From contig JBDRKV010000048.1 of the NCBI GenBank assembly GCA_043813745.1, positions 1 to 40,420 on the forward strand: DNA of 40,420 nt. The letters run 5' to 3'. The notes beneath the pieces are model-generated. The model had not been told where the DNA came from. It was given only the letters and a program-made list of their open reading frames with translations, and did no database searches. A program made the position numbers and the translations under genes. The stretch is from Candidatus Aenigmatarchaeota archaeon. GTDB taxonomy: Archaea; Aenigmatarchaeota; Aenigmatarchaeia; GW2011-AR5; GCA-2688965. Positions 7,625 to 39,904 of this stretch are shown one piece after another (the first letter of the stretch is position 1; the number at the start of each line of letters is the position of its first letter).

Positions 7625-8923
7625 TTAAAACCAAGCGCGCAGCGTCCGCTGCTGTCTGTACGCTCCAAGCACATTGCTTGCCTTCAGCAAGCTATCAATT
7701 GATTTTTTAGTTTGCATGCGCACATGTTTCAGCGCCTCGTCTAGCGTTGCAAACGTTTCTTTATATGGAAAAATAGTAATACCGTCAGCCCCATGTTCTT
7801 TAGATTCCAAGGAGCGTTTCTTACAAGAAAAGCTGCTTCTAACGTTCTCCCTGCATTCCCACACGCCTACAGGAACAGAGTATTCAGGCATGACCTCGCG
7901 CAACACAAGCACGCTTGCCTGCCGACGAATCCTGCTTAGATATTCAGCCACAGCAAACCTTACAGCATAGTACCCGCCCTCGCAGTTGCTTGCATAGTTT
8001 TTGCGGCCGAAGAAGTTTTCATAGTCCGTAGACACAGCCGGCGCAGCCGTAGGATTCCATAATGAGTTTCCGTACCACAGTTCTATCAGTTCAAACGTCC
8101 ACGTACCAGGCATAAACAGTATGTAGAACTTGTTTCCAAGATATTCATTGACATATAGCTCAAATGTATTTATCGTATCAAACCTGCGTATCTCTTTGAG
8201 CATGCTCTTAGCAAGCATGTCATCCGTCGCTGTAATCGACCAGCGCGTTGGAACCAGTTTTTTCTGCGACTTAAGCCCGAGCAAGCCTACGGAAAGTATG
8301 CGCATTAATTGGTTGACGTCAATACCATATCCATAGAGTTCGTTCATTGCTTCTACAGCTTTCAGCTCGTCGCTGACAATTTTGTCTACTTTCGTCAGCA
8401 CGTGCGGATTTTCCTCCAGCTTCACTGCTTTTAATATAGCAGGCGCTCCAATCGGCGGCGTTGTTAAATCCAGTTGCATCGCAACATAAGGCTTTTTCTT
8501 CAGAAAGAATTCCGTAGATGGCGGCTTCGCCGCCATCGCGATCTCCTGCGCTACTTCCAGCGTCTTTGTTTCCGAGCGCACGCTGGTGCGCTCGCGTGAA
8601 TGAATGAGCTGCGTGCGCGCATCCATAATGTCTTCCAAGCCATAGCTCTTTTCATACCAGAAAGTCGGCGCATCAAGCTTCCAGGCATCGCTGCTTACGC
8701 TGGCAGGAGAGAGCAGCCCGATATTAATTTCCGGATAGCCCGCGCGCCCGACAAACGGCGAAACTCCGGAAGCGTTAAAGTTTTCCTTCAGCCTGGCTAT
8801 TTCCACTTTATGCACGTTCAATCGTTCAAGTATTGGACACGGCTTGCCGCAGAGATTTTTGCCCTTACACCTTATGCATAATGTAGATATTTTCCCGAGG
8901 CTTTTCTCAAAAGGCTCTAGCAT
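7625..8923 (-). CDS. nreA: Nre-family DNA repair protein (archaeal)
   Basis: N-terminal Cys cluster CIRCKGKNLCGKPCP, and the length and overall pattern of Nre_N/Nre_C proteins as I recall them. Confidence 0.6.
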   Translation of the reverse strand: MLEPFEKSLGKISTLCIRCKGKNLCGKPCPILERLNVHKVEIARLKENFNASGVSPFVGRAGYPEINIGLLSPASVSSDAWKLDAPTFWYEKSYGLEDIMDARTQLIHSRERTSVRSETKTLEVAQEIAMAAKPPSTEFFLKKKPYVAMQLDLTTPPIGAPAILKAVKLEENPHVLTKVDKIVSDELKAVEAMNELYGYGIDVNQLMRILSVGLLGLKSQKKLVPTRWSITATDDMLAKSMLKEIRRFDTINTFELYVNEYLGNKFYILFMPGTWTFELIELWYGNSLWNPTAAPAVSTDYENFFGRKNYASNCEGGYYAVRFAVAEYLSRIRRQASVLVLREVMPEYSVPVGVWECRENVRSSFSCKKRSLESKEHGADGITIFPYKETFATLDEALKHVRMQTKKSIDSLLKASNVLGAYRQQRTLRAWF

Positions 8924-13431: not shown

Positions 13432-14491
13432 AATCCTCTAGCAAACCGAACGTCCGTTTGCACGCATCTTTATCCTTTTCAGCAAGCGATTTTATCAGTG
13501 GCAGGTAGGTCTCAGCCTCTTTCGTCGTGGTGTGCGTACCCCTGCATACGGCAGCAATAAGCTCGTCCATTGACTTGTCTTTTCTATAGAACCGCCTGGG
13601 AAATGAATAGAATCCATAGCCTTTTGAATTTCCAGAAACAGCAATGCTAAGTATGCCAACACTTACCAAGTATTTCATCAACGATTGTTTCTGGCGCTTG
13701 ATTACGCGCGTGTTGTAAAGCTCGGCAATGGCCAGGTATTCGTATACAAGCGCAAGATCCTTGCCAGAGAACTCTTTGAATACGTTGTTTTCAATCCACC
13801 AGTACAGCTCGTCCATGGGCTTTTCAGAGTCGTCAATTGCTTTTCTCATCACACCAATATCTTTTGTCTTGAAGATAGTTTTTAATGTCGTGAATATGTT
13901 TTCAACGCGCTCCCTGTTGCCGATGAGCAAAACCGAGCTGCTGTCAACAGCGTGCAAAGTCTCAAGGTCATTCAACGCCGCGCGCATGTCCCCATTGCTC
14001 GCGAATGCGACCTGCATAAGCGCGTTTTTTTCATAAGATGTTTTTTCACTTGTGCATACGCGCTCCAGAAAATTAGCAATCTCGCTGATTGGTATTTTTT
14101 CAAGCTTCATAAGCTTGCATTTGGTACGCAGCGTCCTGTAAGCCTGCTTGTACGGTTCCGTAGTCAGTATCACAACAGGAAAAGAGCTCTTGCTGATAAG
14201 CTCAGGAAGTCCTTTAGCTTTTCCAGGCTCGTCTGCGATAATTAATTTGTTTTTGGCAAAAAGGCTTCTCTGTACAGCAACCTCATGCGAACCATCGTAA
14301 TAAACCAGCTCGCGTCCGCTTTCTGTGGCGATCAGCTCCATTGCAAGATTTTTTCCGCAACCTTCTGGACCGTGGAGCATCAAAGCCGTTCCTTTTTTCC
14401 AGCCAGAAATCCATTTCTTTATCTCAAGAATCCGCGGTTTATTTCCAACAAACTCACCAATCGTCCGTGGCCTGTATTTCTCCACTAGCAT
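13421..14491 (-). CDS. rfcL: replication factor C large subunit-like AAA+ protein
   Basis: EKYRPRTIGEFVGN, P-loop GPEGCGKN, IIADEP, NGDMRAALNDLE, and the RfcL-type C-terminal helical domain WWIENN. Confidence 0.7.
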   Translation of the reverse strand: MLVEKYRPRTIGEFVGNKPRILEIKKWISGWKKGTALMLHGPEGCGKNLAMELIATESGRELVYYDGSHEVAVQRSLFAKNKLIIADEPGKAKGLPELISKSSFPVVILTTEPYKQAYRTLRTKCKLMKLEKIPISEIANFLERVCTSEKTSYEKNALMQVAFASNGDMRAALNDLETLHAVDSSSVLLIGNRERVENIFTTLKTIFKTKDIGVMRKAIDDSEKPMDELYWWIENNVFKEFSGKDLALVYEYLAIAELYNTRVIKRQKQSLMKYLVSVGILSIAVSGNSKGYGFYSFPRRFYRKDKSMDELIAAVCRGTHTTTKEAETYLPLIKSLAEKDKDACKRTFGLLEDFSF

Positions 14492-18018: not shown

Positions 18019-18321
18019 CTAGATTATTATCCTTCCGCTAATTTCACTGCCAATAAGCTTTTCAATACTGATCGCCTTTCCACTCGCCTTCACCAACTTG
18101 TCAGACGCTTTTTTGGAAAATCCGTAAGCATATATCGTAACAGGTTTAGTAATGTTTCCGTCAAGCACCTTGCCCGGAACGATGATTGTTTCATTTTCCT
18201 TCGCAATCGCATCTATCTTTGTCAGCCCGATGTCCAAATCACTCTTCAGCCTGCGGGCTATTTCCTTGCACATGGGCTTCCTCATTCCACAAAACTTTTC
18301 AATCAATTTTCTTTTTTCCAT
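18019..18321 (-). CDS. rpl18e: ribosomal protein L18e
   Basis: VPGKVLDGNITKPVTIYAYGFSKKASDKLVKASGKAISIEKL. It sits in the canonical position before L13. The track start 18333 lies inside repeat B3. Confidence 0.8.
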   Translation of the reverse strand: MEKRKLIEKFCGMRKPMCKEIARRLKSDLDIGLTKIDAIAKENETIIVPGKVLDGNITKPVTIYAYGFSKKASDKLVKASGKAISIEKLIGSEISGRIII

Positions 18322-18379
18322 GGTATTCACCATATTGTTTCTTTTGAACCCAAGGGCCTTTTCTTTACAAAGAAAAGGG
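18322..18379 (-). repeat. family B-like element, copy B3 (5' of rpl18e), diverged
   Basis: AAGCCCCTTTTCTTTGTAAAGAAAAGGCCCTTGGGTTCAAAAGAAACAATATGGTGAATACC. It has the same hairpin layout, with stem changes compensated. Confidence 0.6.
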
Positions 18380-18400
18380 GCTTATGCCGGGGGTGAGATT
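18380..18400 (-). repeat. exact 21-bp duplicate of the tRNA-Leu 3' end plus trailer
   Basis: gcttatgccgggggtgagatt occurs at 18380-18400 and at 18491-18511. Confidence 0.9.
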
Positions 18401-18490: not shown

Positions 18491-18495
18491 GCTTA

Positions 18496-18664
18496 TGCCG
18501 GGGGTGAGATTTGAACTCACGAAGACACTAAGTCACAGGATTTCTTAAATCCAGGTTAATATTTTATATCAACCCACTTTTCTTTGGATTCCAAGGAGCC
18601 TTTCTTTTTAAAGAAAGGCTGCTTCTTAAGTCCTGCCCCGTTGACCAGACTTGGGTACCCCGGC
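18496..18664 (-). tRNA. tRNA-Leu(UAA) with an 83-nt intron (exons 18664-18625 and 18541-18496)
   Basis: Hand-folded. Acceptor GCCGGGG/CCCCGGC, anticodon stem CAGGA/TCCTG, loop CTTAAGA, variable arm GACTTAGTGTC, T arm GTGAG-TTCAAAT-CTCAC, discriminator A. No CCA is encoded. Confidence 0.85.
18542..18624 (-). repeat. family B element, copy B1 (the tRNA-Leu intron)
   Basis: Near-identical to 39692-39763 over about 70 nt: GAAGCAGCCTTTCTTT..AAAGAAAGGCTCCTTGGAATCCAAAGAAA...GGTTGATA.AAAATATTAA. Confidence 0.85.
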
Positions 18665-18724: not shown

Positions 18725-18754
18725 GTTTTCCGCAAGCCATGTTTTAAAGGGCTT
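18725..18754. repeat. family E partial copy (3' half)
   Basis: GTTTTCCGCAAGCCATGTTTTAAAGGGCTT. Confidence 0.55.
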
Positions 18755-18760
18755 GGTTGG

Positions 18761-18827
18761 GGTTTCCAAGGGATACATGGATACGAAGTATCCGTGGTTT
18801 TTCCGCAAGCGCTTTCCTAAAGGGCTT
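18761..18827. repeat. family E element, copy E1 (between rpoD stop and tRNA-Leu promoter)
   Basis: GGTTTCCAAGGGAT-[CATGGATAC GAA GTATCCGTG]-GTTTTTCCGCAAGCGCTTTCCTAAAGGGCTT. Confidence 0.8.
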
Positions 18828-19611
18828 ATTTAACACTTTTCTTCAGTTCTTTCTCGAACTCTTTGGCATCCGCCTTCATACCATCCAGCGCTGCCATCAG
18901 GACGTATTCAATGGGCTTGCCGGATATGCTCTCGGCTGTAAACAAAAATTTGCTGTCGTCTCCGCTGACTTTCGTCGCGCCGGATGCAACGCATTTCATA
19001 CACATGTTGCAGCGGTCGTTGTTCGTGACAACTATCTTCCCGTCTCTTTTTGAAAAGACATTTTTAGGGCACATGCTCATCGCTTCCTCGGGTTCGCCCT
19101 CGTCTGTGAGCGACACTTTTGGGTTGTATTTGTACCCGACCACAGCTGCCTGGTGCTTTGCATGCGAGCTGCCACAGCCGAGTTCTGCAGTTGCTTCGAA
19201 CTTTATCTGCTGCCCTTCAAGCAGTTCTATTATCGGCACGCCTGCAGCAGCCGGCTTGACGCTGCCGTCAGTTGATTTCATGTCCTCTCCATGCACAATG
19301 CACGGCCCGGTTTTATCTAGCACGAGCGTAACCTGGCAATGACTGCAACCATCCTTACATTTGCACTTGTCACGTTGTTTGAAAACCTTTTCATCAAACG
19401 TCAATGGTATCAAACCTAATCTGTGCGCTATGATCTCGTCGAATAAGCCTGAATTGTTTTTTTCGAAATAAACCTCTTTAATCGCCATCGTGGACACGCC
19501 TGTCATCATGTAACGCCTCAATGCATTTGCAAAAGCAGGATTACTCTCCTCCAGTACAAATGTCATCTTCTCTTTGGACTTTTTTTGCACATGTATTTTC
19601 ATAAAAATCAT
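18826..19611 (-). CDS. rpoD: DNA-directed RNA polymerase subunit D (Rpo3) with ferredoxin-like Cys cluster
   Basis: AFANALRRYM, GLIPL, Cys clusters CKCKDGCSHC and CNMCMKCV. It sits in the canonical S13-S4-S11-RpoD order. Confidence 0.9.
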   Translation of the reverse strand: MIFMKIHVQKKSKEKMTFVLEESNPAFANALRRYMMTGVSTMAIKEVYFEKNNSGLFDEIIAHRLGLIPLTFDEKVFKQRDKCKCKDGCSHCQVTLVLDKTGPCIVHGEDMKSTDGSVKPAAAGVPIIELLEGQQIKFEATAELGCGSSHAKHQAAVVGYKYNPKVSLTDEGEPEEAMSMCPKNVFSKRDGKIVVTNNDRCNMCMKCVASGATKVSGDDSKFLFTAESISGKPIEYVLMAALDGMKADAKEFEKELKKSVK

Positions 19612-19614
19612 CTC

Positions 19615-19645
19615 GTTTTCCGCGAGCGCTTTCCTAAAAGTTTCA
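19615..19645. repeat. family E partial copy E3 (fills the rps11-rpoD spacer)
   Basis: GTTTTCCGCGAGCGCTTTCCTAAAAGTTTCA. Confidence 0.55.
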
Positions 19646-22640: not shown

Positions 22641-22679
22641 TAATATGGTCTAGACTATTCCAAGGGGAATAGGGTAGTG
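22641..22679 (+). promoter_or_regulatory. family D leader, copy D1 (5' of rps27e), single hairpin
   Basis: TAATATGGTCTAGA CTATTCC-AAGG-GGAATAG GGTAGTG. Confidence 0.65.
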
Positions 22680-23960: not shown

Positions 23961-24056
23961 TAATATGGTATATGCTCAAAGGAATGAATTCCTTTGGCAT
24001 CTCAAAGGTATTCTATGAATGCCTTTGCAGAGACTATTTCAGGAGGAATAGGGTAT
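23961..24056 (+). promoter_or_regulatory. family D leader, copy D2 (5' of the PAC2-family gene), three hairpins
   Basis: TAATATGGTATATGC..., then CAAAGGAAT-GA-ATTCCTTTG, CAAAGGTAT-TCTATGA-ATGCCTTTG, and GA CTATTTC-AGGA-GGAATAG GGTAT. Confidence 0.65.
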
Positions 24057-25918: not shown

Positions 25919-26707
25919 ATGAGAGCACTTGGTTTCTATCCTGTCGACCCGGAAAAGCTGGAAAAGCAAGTAACGTCTTTTCTAGAACAAGACGTCAAGC
26001 CCGTGCAGGATGCACTGGGCGCAATCGTTCCGCACGCAGGCTACCCTTTCTCAGGCATGCTTGCTGCGAAAACGTTGAAGGCTGCGAAAACCAAGAATCA
26101 TCGTTTCATAATCATGGGTCCGAACCACATGGGACACGACACGCTGATAGATAATGGAGAATGGCGCACGCCATTGGACAAGTTGAAGTTGGACAACGAC
26201 TTCATAAAGAAATTGAATATCAAACAAGATTCGACGTTAGAACATAGCATTGAAGTCCAGCTGCCCATATTGCAGAAACTATACAACGACTTTAGTTTTG
26301 TTCCATTAGTTGTAGGTCCGAACACCTTCGACGAACTAAAGCAGCTTGCAAAGCAGCTGATGACAAGCGACCATTTCTATATAGCAAGCAGCGATTTCAT
26401 CCATTTCGGCCCGAACTACAACTACGTGCCTTCTGAAGCCGGTCCAGGCCAGCAGGACCAGCTGAAATGGGTCAAGAACATTGACCGAAAGCTTGCAGAA
26501 TTAATATGCAATCTGAAAGCAAAAGAATTTTTTGAAGAAATCGAGAAAAAAGAGTATACAGTGTGCGGCTACCGCGCAATAACGCTCTTCATGCTGCTCA
26601 TGGAAAAGCTCGGAGCCAAGCAGGGCCAGACAATCGACTACGCAACAAGTTACGACGTTTACCCAAATCACTCCTTTGTTTCGTACGTGGGTTTCGTGTT
26701 TAGTTAG
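25919..26707 (+). CDS. MEMO1-family protein (AmmeMemoRadiSam system protein B)
   Basis: GAIVPHAGYPFSG, IIMGPNH and SSDFIHFG. Confidence 0.8.
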   Translation: MRALGFYPVDPEKLEKQVTSFLEQDVKPVQDALGAIVPHAGYPFSGMLAAKTLKAAKTKNHRFIIMGPNHMGHDTLIDNGEWRTPLDKLKLDNDFIKKLNIKQDSTLEHSIEVQLPILQKLYNDFSFVPLVVGPNTFDELKQLAKQLMTSDHFYIASSDFIHFGPNYNYVPSEAGPGQQDQLKWVKNIDRKLAELICNLKAKEFFEEIEKKEYTVCGYRAITLFMLLMEKLGAKQGQTIDYATSYDVYPNHSFVSYVGFVFS

Positions 26708-26770
26708 GGTTTCCAAGGGATTGTGCGCTGCGAAGCACGCACGTTTTCCGCAAGCGCTTTCTTAAAGGGC
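26708..26770. repeat. family E element, copy E2 (after the MEMO-family gene)
   Basis: GGTTTCCAAGGGAT-[GTGCGCTGC GAA GCACGCAC]-GTTTTCCGCAAGCGCTTTCTTAAAGGGC. Confidence 0.8.
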
Positions 26771-26819
26771 TTACCCAAATCACTCCTTTGTTTCGTACGT
26801 GGGTTTCGTTTTCAGTTAA
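26771..26819 (+). pseudogene. duplicate of the last 15 codons plus stop of the MEMO-family gene
   Basis: 49 bp, 46/49 identical to 26659-26707. All three differences are at third codon positions (GTG/GTT, TTT/TTC, TAG/TAA). Confidence 0.85.
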
Positions 26820-27405: not shown

Positions 27406-27507
27406 TTAATATGGTCTATCTGAGAAGGTATCATTTAGATACCTTCTAGATTTTGAAGACATCCGAGATGTCTTCACAAAGACTGATGCAAAAGCATCAG
27501 GGTAGGG
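27406..27507 (+). promoter_or_regulatory. family D leader, copy D4 (5' of tRNA-Ser), three hairpins
   Basis: TTAATATGGTCTATCTG, AGAAGGTATC-ATTTA-GATACCTTCT, AGATTTT, GAAGACATC-CGA-GATGTCTTC, ACAAAGA, CTGATGC-AAAA-GCATCAG, GGTAGGG. Confidence 0.7.
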
Positions 27508-27547
27508 TTTGTCGTTTTTAAATGATGCTTGATAAAAAATCTAACAT

Positions 27548-27693: not shown

Positions 27694-27794
27694 TAATATG
27701 ATCTATCTGAAAAGGCTTTCAAAGAAAGCCTTTTAGATTTGGAAGACATCTTTGATGTCTTCACAAAGACTGTTCTAAGAAGAACAGGGTAGTG
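27694..27794 (+). promoter_or_regulatory. family D leader, copy D5 (5' of rpl10e), three hairpins
   Basis: TAATATGATCTATCTG, AAAAGGCTTTC-AAA-GAAAGCCTTTT, AGATTTG, GAAGACATC-TTT-GATGTCTTC, ACAAAGA, CTGTTCT-AAGA-AGAACAG, GGTAGTG. Confidence 0.7.
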
Positions 27795-27801
27795 ATTCAA
27801 A

Positions 27802-28347: not shown

Positions 28348-28375
28348 TAAGCAGATGAAAAGAAAAAGCTGCTTA
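28348..28375. terminator. stem-loop between convergent rpl10e and cbf5
   Basis: TAAGCAG-ATGAAAAGAAAAAG-CTGCTTA. It overlaps the cbf5 stop codon. Confidence 0.35.
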
Positions 28376-29287
28376 TAAAACCCTGTCAACCTTCACAGCC
28401 GCGCCCTTGCTCTTAATCATCTCGCTCGCGTCCATCTGCACATTGCCCAGCGCTATAAGCGCTCCGTTCAACGAAACCAGGGCAACAACGTCGTTGTTTA
28501 TAATATTCGATTGTACGCGGCTCACGCCTCCGGCGTAGAGCGCAGAACCGTTGCGCACGTTCTTTATCGCGCTGTCCTTTATCACGACGATTTTGGCAGC
28601 CCTCAGGCAGTATTCTATCGGCAAAACGATTTCGCGTATATTTTCATCTCCGTTCTCGCGCCAGAAAACAAAACTATCTTTCAGCTCCTGCAACGTATGT
28701 GATTCACTTTCAGTAAAAGGCCCAACGCGCACACGACGAAGCTCTTTCATGTGCGCCCCGCCGATTTTTTCGCCGATGTCATGCACCAGTTTTCTTATGT
28801 ATGTTCCAGCCGCACACGCTATTTGCAAGCAAACGTCTTTGTCAACACGGTCAAGGATTTCTATCTTGTAGACATTTCTGAAACGTTCAACGCGCTTCAC
28901 AGCAGACTTCACAGGCGGTTTTTGTTTTATCGTGCCAACAAACTCTTTTAGAGTGCTTACAAGTTTTTTGTCATCAACGTCCCTATGCGCGTGCATCACG
29001 CACACGTATTCCTTGTCTAATCCATTCAGCAATGGCATGACCTTGCACGCGTTCTCTGTCGTTATCAACAGCACGCCCGAAGTTTCAGGGTCTAGCGTCC
29101 CGGATTGGCCCGCTTTCTTCAAGCCAAGCATTTTTTTCACGGTCGCAACCGTGTCTTGCGACGTTGGCCCTGCCGGTTTGTCTAGAACCAAAAAACCATT
29201 TTTCAGTATCTCGCTTATTGCTTTAGAAGAAGGACTAGTTCCAGATGGAACATCCGCTGTCCGAACTATAAATCCGCTTTTCATCAT
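28373..29287 (-). CDS. cbf5: tRNA/rRNA pseudouridine synthase Cbf5 (TruB family, with PUA domain)
   Basis: VLDKPAGPTSQD ... GTLDPETSGVLLI, plus a C-terminal PUA-like region. ATG 29287 overlaps the upstream stop (ATGA). Confidence 0.85.
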   Translation of the reverse strand: MMKSGFIVRTADVPSGTSPSSKAISEILKNGFLVLDKPAGPTSQDTVATVKKMLGLKKAGQSGTLDPETSGVLLITTENACKVMPLLNGLDKEYVCVMHAHRDVDDKKLVSTLKEFVGTIKQKPPVKSAVKRVERFRNVYKIEILDRVDKDVCLQIACAAGTYIRKLVHDIGEKIGGAHMKELRRVRVGPFTESESHTLQELKDSFVFWRENGDENIREIVLPIEYCLRAAKIVVIKDSAIKNVRNGSALYAGGVSRVQSNIINNDVVALVSLNGALIALGNVQMDASEMIKSKGAAVKVDRVL

Positions 29288-29886
29288 ATCTGAATGCCCA
29301 TTAGTTTTCTGATTATGAACATGAACGGTATAGATACTATGAAATACCATCCCAGCCAGCCCAGATCGTCGCCGAACATCGGCAGACTTATGGGCAGAGC
29401 AGCAACCACGCGCTGGAATTGTATCTTATCGTCTACTTCAAAAATATTCCATATATTGCCCGCAATAACGATTTTCTCAGCTGGTATGCTTAGCGATGCT
29501 ACATTTATTTCCTCGCCGTCCAGCATGATCGAGCTCTGGTTTTTGGCAATATAAACGTCATTGTAATGTGCGTGAGCCCATGGAAGCAGTAATGCGACGA
29601 CAATCAGTGAAACAATCATGGGCTTCATAGTCTTTTTCATCATCTGGTTGCTCACTTTCATGGACTCGCTCATTAGTTTTTTGGTTTCGTCCGTGTTGTT
29701 CTCTTTCCTGGATTTCTTCATCTTCCTATTGAGCTCCTTGGACACCCGTTTCATCGCGGCTATTTCGTCCTGCTTTATAAGGAACTTGTAGCAGATATTG
29801 ATGATTACCAAGATTATGATAGAAAACATAAAGATAGAAATAACAGGATGAAACCCTGTCAAAAAACCTAGTATAATATCCAACAT
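29284..29886 (-). CDS. DUF106/EMC3-like membrane protein (archaeal YidC/Oxa1-like insertase candidate)
   Basis: TM1, then the K/E/M-rich helix KRVSKELNRKMKKSRKE...MMKKTMKPM, TM2, and the C-terminal GWLGWYFIVSIPFMFIIRK. Confidence 0.55.
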   Translation of the reverse strand: MLDIILGFLTGFHPVISIFMFSIIILVIINICYKFLIKQDEIAAMKRVSKELNRKMKKSRKENNTDETKKLMSESMKVSNQMMKKTMKPMIVSLIVVALLLPWAHAHYNDVYIAKNQSSIMLDGEEINVASLSIPAEKIVIAGNIWNIFEVDDKIQFQRVVAALPISLPMFGDDLGWLGWYFIVSIPFMFIIRKLMGIQI

Positions 29887-38946: not shown

Positions 38947-39678
38947 CTAAAAATTCTCCTGTATGAACCGTTCCAGATAGATTAGTTCATTCGGATTTCC
39001 GAACGGTACCCAATAACTCTTCGCCGGCACGATGCGAACTTTGTGCGCATCTGCGAGCAGCTGCACAGCAGACGTGATTTCGTATTCTCCGCGCTCTGAG
39101 CGTTTTATTTTTTTCAGCGCCTCAAAGATGTCAGGCGTGAACTTCCACAAGTTCGCGTTAACAAGCTTGTCTTGATAGAACTCCTTGATCTCACCAGCAG
39201 ACGGCTTTTCAACAATCCTGCGCAGCCATCCCTGCTGGTCTGTCGAAAGTACAGCGTATTTTGTGGGGTCCATTGCACGATAGCCCATGCCATAGCAAAC
39301 GTCGTCGTTAATAACTTTCTTGAACCGAGCCATGTCATCCGGCGAATACAAGTCATCGCCGTTGACCATTACAAAGTTTTGCCCGGCAACGAAGTCTTCC
39401 GCAGCTTTCACAGCATCGCCTGTGCCTCTTGGCTCTGGCTGGTTGATGAAAGATATTTTCATGTCAAAATAGTGCTTGTTCTTCTTTACCCAGTCCTCCA
39501 TCATTTCTTTCTTGTAATTTACAACAATGCCCACGTCAGTCGCGCCGGCAGTCTTAAGGTTGTGTAGTAACCAATATAGGAACGGCTTGCCGGCTACAGG
39601 TATGAGCGGCTTTGGTATCGTAGCCGTAAGAGGCATCATGCGCGTGCCCTTTCCAGCAGCTAAGAGAACGACTTTCAT
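38947..39678 (-). CDS. sugar-phosphate nucleotidyltransferase (RfbA/GlmU N-domain-like)
   Basis: MKVVLLAAGKGTRMMPLTATIPKPLIPVAGKP. Confidence 0.8.
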   Translation of the reverse strand: MKVVLLAAGKGTRMMPLTATIPKPLIPVAGKPFLYWLLHNLKTAGATDVGIVVNYKKEMMEDWVKKNKHYFDMKISFINQPEPRGTGDAVKAAEDFVAGQNFVMVNGDDLYSPDDMARFKKVINDDVCYGMGYRAMDPTKYAVLSTDQQGWLRRIVEKPSAGEIKEFYQDKLVNANLWKFTPDIFEALKKIKRSERGEYEITSAVQLLADAHKVRIVPAKSYWVPFGNPNELIYLERFIQENF

Positions 39679-39763
39679 TGAAAAAAACCTTCCTTAATAT
39701 TTTGTATCAACCATATGTTTCTTTGGATTCCAAGGAGCCTTTCTTTACAAAGAAAGGCTGCTT
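39679..39763 (-). repeat. family B element, copy B2 (immediately 5' of the nucleotidyltransferase ATG)
   Basis: Same core as B1. Its 3' end supplies AATATTAAGGAAGGTTTTTTTCA just before the ATG. Confidence 0.85.
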
Positions 39764-39788
39764 CTGCAGCTAAGAGGACTATTTTCAT
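39764..39788 (-). pseudogene. relic duplicate of the first 25 nt of the nucleotidyltransferase gene
   Basis: ATGAAAATAGTCCTCTTAGCTGCAG versus the gene's ATGAAAGTCGTTCTCTTAGCTGCTG, which is 21/25 identical. Confidence 0.75.
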
Positions 39789-39835
39789 ATTTTCATCTCC
39801 GATGAAAATCTCAACGAATGCAATGCATTCAGTTG
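39789..39835 (-). repeat. family A copy A4 (upstream of the relic nucleotidyltransferase start)
   Basis: mRNA sense: CAACTGAATGC-ATT-GCATTCGTTG AGATTTTCAT CGGAG ATGAAAAT. Confidence 0.7.
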
Positions 39836-39904
39836 CAGATCATCACTCTGCAATTATTCGATGAAAAATTTAAATAGATTTAATTAAGCTCTTAATTAAA
39901 TATA

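Follow-up and report, generated by a model that had tools for sequence, protein, structure and literature searches.

The tRNA-Leu(UAA) gene and its intron

The stretch of DNA analysed as a whole, 40,420 nucleotides from a Candidatus Aenigmatarchaeota contig, is referred to below as the window. On its minus strand, upstream of rpl18e, lies a tRNA-Leu(UAA) gene that is interrupted by an intron:

18625..18664 (-), tRNA-Leu(UAA) 5' exon, positions 1-37, ending in ...CAGGA CUUAAG, from ARAGORN with introns allowed
18542..18624 (-), 83-nt intron at the canonical 37/38 position, from the bulge-helix-bulge (BHB) scan
18496..18541 (-), tRNA-Leu(UAA) 3' exon, from A38 to the discriminator A73, with no encoded CCA

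With introns allowed, ARAGORN places a tRNA-Leu(taa) at c[18496,18664]; its type-II cloverleaf is complete and the intron measures 83 nt. This agrees with an earlier note on this DNA, which had folded the two exons by hand and placed them correctly. The gene is missed by ARAGORN in its default mode and by Rfam at the gathering threshold. Once spliced, the sequence takes up a fold that has an acceptor, an anticodon, a variable and a T arm. The earlier note had found the junctions to fall short of a textbook geometry; the BHB scan shows a textbook hBHBh' 3-4-3 arrangement, gcaggaCUUA[AG|A]ag ... uuUAAG[AA|A]uccugu (h=6, H=4, h'=2), exactly at 37/38. The central 4-bp helix is formed by C32-U33-U34-A35 (18630-18627, CUUA) with UAAG (18547-18544) and extends the 6-pair anticodon stem, and two more pairs form inside the intron. 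The 3-nt bulges lie at 18626-18624 (A36 G37 | A) and 18543-18541 (A A | A38), each with its cut after the second nucleotide, which puts the 5' cut behind 18625 and the start of the 3' exon at 18541. A motif as good as this one has a background of about 9e-6 per position pair on the same strand, and the extra six pairs, given the anticodon stem, have an estimated chance of about 0.003. The BHB is not the minimum-energy fold of the pre-tRNA: constrained to form it, the structure lies 7 kcal/mol above the MFE, a gap taken to speak neither for nor against the motif, since the energy model heavily penalises 3-nt bulges. From its sequence the gene is inferred to be functional, and its transcript would be spliced. 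Canonical 37/38 introns of archaea are removed by the splicing endonuclease and the RtcB ligase; the genes for neither were found within the 40-kb window.

A dispersed three-hairpin repeat

About 70 nt of the tRNA-Leu intron are taken up by a repeat of that length made of three hairpins, hereafter the element. Repeat and profile searches revealed four copies in the window; each lies on the minus strand and is sense to its host gene (scores from a covariance model):

18556..18624 (-), c1, in the tRNA-Leu intron (86.9 bits)
39694..39763 (-), c2, before the nucleotidyltransferase ATG (91.2 bits)
18318..18386 (-), c3, diverged, before rpl18e (69.5 bits)
about 7763..7838 (-), c4, inside the Nre ORF (70.4 bits)

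The first hairpin (hp1) has 17 bp with one C-C mismatch, AGCAGCCUUUCUU / AAGAAAGGCUCCU; the second (hp2), UUGG-AAU-CCAA followed by AGAAA, is a short hairpin within the conserved run CUCCUUGGAAUCCAAAGAAA; and the third (hp3) varies between copies, reading GGUUGAUAU-AAA-AUAUUAACC in c1. Hairpins are present at both element ends, and neither clear terminal inverted repeats nor a consistent target-site duplication were found. The intron core recurs at 39692-39766 (-) and 18318-18386 (-) (nhmmer E 2e-21 to 2e-15), covariance model scores range from 69 to 91 bits, and a 20-mer of the core has three exact matches in the window against 0.01 expected by chance. Over a 43-nt core, c2 is identical to c1, whereas c3 matches at 34/43 positions and has both partners replaced in two of its stem pairs (C:G in place of G:C, and U:A in place of C:G). 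The description of the intron in the earlier note as a copy of a dispersed structured repeat, recurring at 39692-39763 and in a diverged form with compensated stems 5' of rpl18e, is therefore borne out by c2 and c3, and c4, which was absent from that note, is a further copy outside tRNA genes. Across six copies (the four in the window and two in another genome, described below) hp1 is 97% paired, with two double-sided changes, which is only modest evidence for structure.

The window copies differ from each other and have unique flanks. The junction AG|AAGCAGC is common to c1, c2 and c4, and the left flank AG|A occurs in 3/5 copies. Similarities between the flanks extend over 13, about 11 and 25 nt and are all imperfect, the one at c1 consisting of ancestral intron sequence (see below). 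Rfam contains no match to the element and, at permissive E-values, returns only spurious microRNA hairpin matches over the element and the spacer downstream of the tRNA gene. Two other readings were set aside: the AT-rich hp3 as a promoter for the 3' exon or for the nucleotidyltransferase start codon (ATG2, see below), since it forms a 9-bp hairpin in c1 and lacks conservation in the other copies, and C/D-box, hammerhead or antisense-tRNA identities for the element and spacer, for which no matching motifs were seen by eye.

An intron older than the element

RpoD homologues (58-62% identity) led to three syntenic relatives, L008, L010 and L012, which have the gene order S13-S4-S11-RpoD-tRNA-Leu-(L18e)-L13-S9; the order on both sides of c1/c3, and of c4, agrees between the window and relatives. 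Their orthologous tRNA-Leu(UAA) genes show compensatory changes in the acceptor and T stems, and the 5' exon is invariant or compensated in comparison with them. All three have a 37/38 intron of about 20-29 nt that ends in ...(T)AAGAA|ATCCTG and is devoid of the element. The corresponding part of the window intron is:

18542..18555 (-), ancestral intron 3' end CCUGGAUUUAAGAA, which supplies the 3' strand of the BHB and is homologous to the intron ends of the relatives

The homologous 3' ends are GCAGGGATAAGAA in L010, GGGTTGTAAGAA in L012 and AAAGGTAGAA in L008, with which CCTGGATTTAAGAA of the window aligns. Because three relatives have the same 37/38 intron 3' end without the element, the tRNA-Leu intron must predate the element, which has only lengthened it, from about 20-29 nt to 83 nt. 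The intron gain proposed in the earlier note is contradicted by these element-free introns. The imperfect duplication which that note saw bracketing the intron, CAGGACTTAAGAA / CTGGATTTAAGAA, is present as described, and its 3' copy pairs with the palindromic loop CUUAAG, but it is ancestral intron sequence and not a target-site duplication or other insertion footprint, because the element-free introns of the orthologues share it. A covariance model search of about 46 kb of L008, L010 and L012 gave no copy other than a weak counterpart of c3 in L012.

The intron 3' end also resembles the anticodon stem-loop of the 5' exon (18625-18637 versus 18542-18554 in the window), as it does in L010 (GCAGGGATAAGAA). 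A tandem duplication of the self-complementary CUUAAG loop stretch would create a BHB by itself, and this is a possible origin of the ancestral intron. In L010 (6227-6366) and L012 (9375-9509), tRNA-Leu(UAA) appears to have a second, non-canonical intron of about 31 nt at positions 31/32, and ARAGORN misreads the two genes (as Leu-aag and Glu-ttc).

Copies outside tRNA genes

The copy c4 resides in a protein-coding gene:

7625-8923 (-), Nre repair-protein ORF, hosting c4

It is in frame with Nre, contains no stop codon and brings a net gain of about 20 residues, KRSLESKEHGADGITIFPYK. Where 11 Nre homologues read ENVRN(A/S)FFNK-LTF(D/A)TL, the window reads ENVRSSFSCK KRSLESKEHGADGITIFPYK ETFATL, and the c4 sequence has diverged at the places where other copies have stop codons. 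The native Nre codons of L008 at the junction, AAT GCA TTT TTC, resemble the element start, AGC AGC TTT TCT. A BHB scan at c4 yielded a 4-bp helix only, with no flanking helices and no BHB bracketing the copy, and the only formal in-frame excision, of 87 nt between two AACGTT copies, would delete 9 residues kept by all 11 homologues. For these two reasons c4 is read as translated rather than spliced, and would form part of a length-tolerant linker of Nre; splicing of c4 from the mRNA is not supported.

At c2 the following features are found:

38947..39678 (-), sugar-nucleotide nucleotidyltransferase gene, downstream of c2 (Pfam NTP_transferase, E = 9e-39)
39764..39788 (-), stub consisting of ATG1 and 8 codons, ATGAAAATAGTCCTCTTAGCTGCAG

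The stub differs from the real start, ATG2 (39678), at 5/25 positions, by changes that are synonymous or conservative, and because of these differences it is not a simple duplication made at insertion. From ATG1 a 37-codon uORF reads across c2 and terminates where it overlaps ATG2 in ATGA, and the protein-database entry of the nucleotidyltransferase (P0241, 243 aa) begins at ATG2. Shine-Dalgarno-like sequences precede both starts, GGAAGG at ATG2 and GGAGAT at ATG1. A BHB-like fold can be drawn, uuAGCU[GC|A]ga ... uuAGCU[GC|U]gg, with 2+2 flanking pairs and 3 G-U among its 8 pairs, and removal of 110 nt would fuse ATG1 in frame, restoring MKIVLLAAGKGTR. Such a fold is expected in an estimated 5% or so of cases (p about 0.05) for a direct repeat with a 4-nt palindrome, and support for splicing of c2 from the mRNA is no more than marginal. 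The nucleotidyltransferase homologues are at most 48% identical, with no close orthologue for a comparison of the 5' region. Ahead of ATG1, the leader at 39789-39870 (-) contains three hairpins, of which AUUUUCAUC-GGA-GAUGAAAAU buries the Shine-Dalgarno-like GGAGAU before ATG1.

The copy c3 ends in a small hairpin that contains the rpl18e ATG (18333). Its weak counterpart in L012 (9518-9579, E = 0.014) occupies the same place, and in L008 a similar TTTCTTT/AAAGAAA hairpin follows tRNA-Leu. Directly 5' of c3 a piece of the tRNA gene region is repeated:

18380..18400 (-), exact duplicate of the 21 nt that end the tRNA-Leu region, AATCTCACCCCCGGCATAAGC, the first copy being at 18491-18511

In the window this copy sits 111 nt downstream; the last 17-21 nt of tRNA-Leu are repeated likewise in L008 (10920-11090), and in L010 (6330-6660) at least 3 tandem units of the repeat extend across an assembly gap. 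In each genome the repeat co-varies with that genome's own tRNA 3' end. The spacer of about 90 nt that precedes it is conserved and structured, comprising an inverted copy of the T-loop region (GTTCAAATCT / AGATTTGAAC in the window, GGTTCGAATCC / GGATTCGAACC in L008 and L010), a helix GAC-U-GAGC / GCUC-GUC (with an insert of about 50 nt in L008) and a further hairpin. Searches of the spacer gave no Rfam match and no in-register BHB; for want of the latter, the duplicated tRNA 3' end was not taken as the mark of an intron in the T-loop. Spacer and 3'-end copy could be an att-like relic of T-loop integration, or an RNA of a new kind. In L008 (10777-11173) no rpl18e ORF is called between tRNA-Leu and rpl13, unlike in the window and L010.

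The element in tRNA introns of UBA10117

A scan of genome, metagenome and viral contigs with a 20-mer of the core found one real locus, in the DPANN genome UBA10117, where it is present in two independent assemblies (L001 and L006); the other matches (L002-L005, L007) were chance matches in coding sequences. The copy count for the host genome itself rests on the 40-kb window. A profile search added a second UBA10117 copy about 650 nt from the first, on the same strand of L006:

L006 10960-11170 and 11640-11825 (-), the two UBA10117 tRNA genes with the element

In one of them, tRNA-Ile(GAU), the intron occupies the canonical site and its junctions form a BHB, cugcuCUGA[UA|A] ... UUAG[AC|A]ggcag; in the other, tRNA-Ala(CGC), only 3/4 central BHB pairs form. 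The 43-nt core is identical (43/43) across c1, c2 and the tRNA-Ile copy and matches at 40/43 positions in the tRNA-Ala copy, and the hp1 loop ranges from 4 to 9 nt between copies. In the Leu, Ile and Ala tRNAs alike, AGCAGCC begins 1-2 nt after the 5' splice site, a constancy for which random insertion into a short intron has a probability of about 0.5% (rough estimate). The tRNA-Ile target AGGCAG resembles AAGCAG at the element 5' end. The six copies are all sense to the host transcript (chance about 0.03). Besides the element, L006 and the window share nothing, including no genes, and BLAST of the element against phage and plasmid collections gave no match. Both element-bearing UBA10117 tRNAs have a second intron in the T-loop, that of tRNA-Ala being 14 nt long with a clean BHB, gugggUUCA[AU|G]c ... 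gUGAA[AA|U]cccac; ARAGORN finds neither tRNA.

Origin and spread of the element

As judged from these comparisons, the element must have moved, because it is found in three tRNA introns (Leu, Ile and Ala) and two genomes, yet is absent from the orthologous tRNA-Leu intron and Nre of the relatives. The explanation considered best, with moderate confidence, is that of a small non-autonomous mobile repeat which is kept where it is harmless and which enlarged an old tRNA-Leu intron. The interpretation in the earlier note thus stands as regards a dispersed mobile repeat that also occupies non-tRNA sites. The repeat would spread within and between DPANN genomes and would survive only at harmless sites: in tRNA introns, where it would sit between the two BHB strands and be discarded by splicing; in leaders or intergenic DNA, as for c2 and c3; and in an in-frame protein linker, where it would be translated, as for c4. 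Movement would probably take place at the DNA level, by template switching or recombination aided by short similarity between the element 5' end and its target, or alternatively through a hairpin-recognising transposase supplied in trans; the window itself contains housekeeping genes only, with no transposase, integrase or reverse transcriptase. Such a DNA-level model accounts only indirectly for the sense orientation of all six copies, and the constant start 1-2 nt past the 5' splice site hints at a link to the splice site itself.

It is also conceivable, and judged unlikely, that the hairpin is a functional cis-acting RNA or DNA signal, such as a terminator, a processing hairpin or a protein-binding site, whose conservation reflects its function and whose ancestral home was just downstream of tRNA-Leu, from where it was copied elsewhere. 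The identity of 43/43 core positions across genomes could indeed mark a selected function, and between genomes it is the loops that vary, the stems being identical. The compensated stems of c3, the hairpins that follow tRNA-Leu in L012 and L008 and the other short hairpin families found directly after stop codons in the window point the same way. A terminator or processing site within a tRNA intron or the Nre coding sequence, however, would serve no evident purpose and would be likely to do harm; contexts are mixed (intron, coding sequence and leader), the orthologous sites of the relatives are without the element, and Rfam gives no match.

Somewhat less probable still is an element of the RNA level, or mobile BHB-type intron, that enters RNAs at endonuclease cleavage sites, where RtcB would ligate its 5'-OH to the 2',3'-cyclic phosphate of the 5' exon before the joined RNA became fixed in DNA; the nucleotidyltransferase and Nre copies would on that account be, or once have been, spliced mRNA introns. 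The constant start at the 5' splice site of three tRNAs and the six sense copies keep a role of the splicing enzymes alive, and the common junction AG|AAGCAGC of c1, c2 and c4, the direct repeat with palindromic AGCU around c2, where removal of 110 nt fuses ATG1 to GKGTR..., and the AACGTT palindrome flanking c4, which formally permits the 87-nt excision, would also fit. At c4, however, there is only the 4-bp helix, and excision would cost 9 residues of a segment whose length is the same in all 11 homologues; of the 8 pairs in the c2 motif 3 are G-U, a motif of this kind is expected by chance at about 5% for such a repeat, and ATG2 has its own Shine-Dalgarno-like GGAAGG and needs no splicing. 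Furthermore, the c1 intron did not move as a unit, its 3' half being ancestral, and no reverse transcriptase was seen in the 40-kb window. That the splicing enzymes themselves take part in the spread is considered improbable, and the specific scheme in which the element spreads as RNA, with the endonuclease cutting and RtcB ligating at 5' splice sites or BHB-like mRNA sites before copying into DNA, a little more so. Were RNA-level spread true, c2 would be a spliceable mRNA intron, and the element would be an archaeal intron that moves by reverse splicing and passes between tRNA and protein-coding genes.

A tRNA-Leu pseudogene disrupted by the repeat, or copies that are assembly chimeras, is a highly improbable account, for which may be cited the failure of default tRNA scanners, the 7 kcal/mol gap and the chance that the stub before c2 comes from a misjoin inside a repeat, but against which stand the intact cloverleaf with a BHB exactly at 37/38, the compensatory exon changes relative to the orthologues, the gene order flanking c1/c3 and c4, the non-identical copies with unique flanks and the recovery of the UBA10117 copies in two independent assemblies.

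Comparison with known introns and repeats

The tRNA-Leu intron resembles a canonical archaeal BHB tRNA intron in where it lies, in its 3-4-3 geometry, in having a 3' end that pairs with the anticodon and in leaving an intact cloverleaf when removed; it differs in consisting mostly of a dispersed repeat and in its length, 83 nt being three to four times that of the orthologues. In Thermoproteales, near-identical introns occur in different tRNAs by a mechanism described as unknown in the summary of Fujishima et al. 2010 given in PMC4090602, a 2014 review that likewise speaks of archaeal tRNA 'intron transposition' as having no known mechanism. The similar intron sequence in Leu(UAA), Ile(GAU) and Ala(CGC) is comparable and implies spread after the tRNAs diverged. 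Here, however, the hosts are DPANN archaea, the canonical site is used in all three insertions, and sharing is limited to the 5' part and middle of the intron, the BHB-forming 3' end being local and ancestral; the sequence further occurs within a coding region, in a leader and in an intergenic spacer. The shared unit is thus not a whole intron with its junction ends, the 3' end in Leu being local, and is not confined to tRNAs, c2-c4 lying outside them.

With MITE-, REP- and PATE-like repeats the element has in common a length of about 70 nt, richness in hairpins, dispersal, a single-strand bias and a tolerated in-frame insertion. Unlike these it is without terminal inverted repeats, a regular target-site duplication or, in the 40-kb window, a partner transposase; its hairpins are internal, and the terminal inverted repeats and fixed-length target-site duplication that define a MITE were not found. 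The observations that bear on a possible IS200/IS605-derived or REP-like nature are the end hairpins, the location of 4/4 window copies on the minus strand and 2/2 L006 copies on one strand, and the AG|A flank of 3/5 copies; no Y1 transposase (TnpA or RAYT) was found within the 40-kb window.

A BHB intron in an archaeal pre-mRNA is known from cbf5 of some Crenarchaeota (PMC2738675). If the tRNA endonuclease spliced c2 or c4, that intron would be the nearest known parallel, but no convincing BHB is present at c4 and that at c2 is marginal. The cbf5/TruB pseudouridine synthase gene of the window (28373-29350 (-)) is an uninterrupted 325-codon ORF. Intron gain and the scattering of tRNA fragments by integrating elements have been described by Sugahara et al. 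2012 (PMC3293823). The 21-nt copy of the tRNA 3' end 111 nt downstream of the gene is reminiscent of such integration; it differs in that there is no recombinase or kilobase-scale insert, and the repeated piece lies beyond the conserved, structured spacer of about 90 nt.

A limited literature search found no paper describing a tRNA-intron sequence shared in this way with a coding region and a leader. The canonical BHB intron is ordinary; what sets this case apart is a general repeat shared by tRNA introns, a coding region, a leader and a spacer, and situated in a pre-existing intron. The element may help to explain how archaeal tRNA introns come to share sequence. A simple route is suggested, in which mobile repeats insert widely and tRNA introns serve as safe harbours, the BHB machinery throwing the insert away, and similar introns would then be a by-product, with no intron-specific process needed to produce them. 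The constant start 1-2 nt past the 5' splice site leaves room for a direct role of the splicing enzymes. The case also has a parallel in animals, where a recent description (PMC12779559) has transposons excised from mRNAs in an RTCB-dependent manner.

Other small repeats in the window

The region is rich in small structured repeats. A separate 30-nt family, reading TAAGCCCTTTAGGAAAGCGCTTGCGGAAAA on the minus strand, occurs at:

13476-13505
18726-18755
18799-18828
19616-19645
26744-26773

This family begins at or just after the rpoD and rps11 stop codons and has the look of a terminator or 3'-end hairpin. In addition, a 69-nt two-hairpin repeat lies on both sides of tRNA-Ser(GGA) (27442-27510 and 27729-27797, 80% identity). 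Related to this two-hairpin repeat is a family AGAC-hairpin-GGGTA, found at three sites (22652-22676 and 24031-24055 among them) with stems that differ in sequence yet remain self-complementary. A further repeat, of 48 nt, has two copies with 96% identity, at 26659-26706 and 26771-26818.
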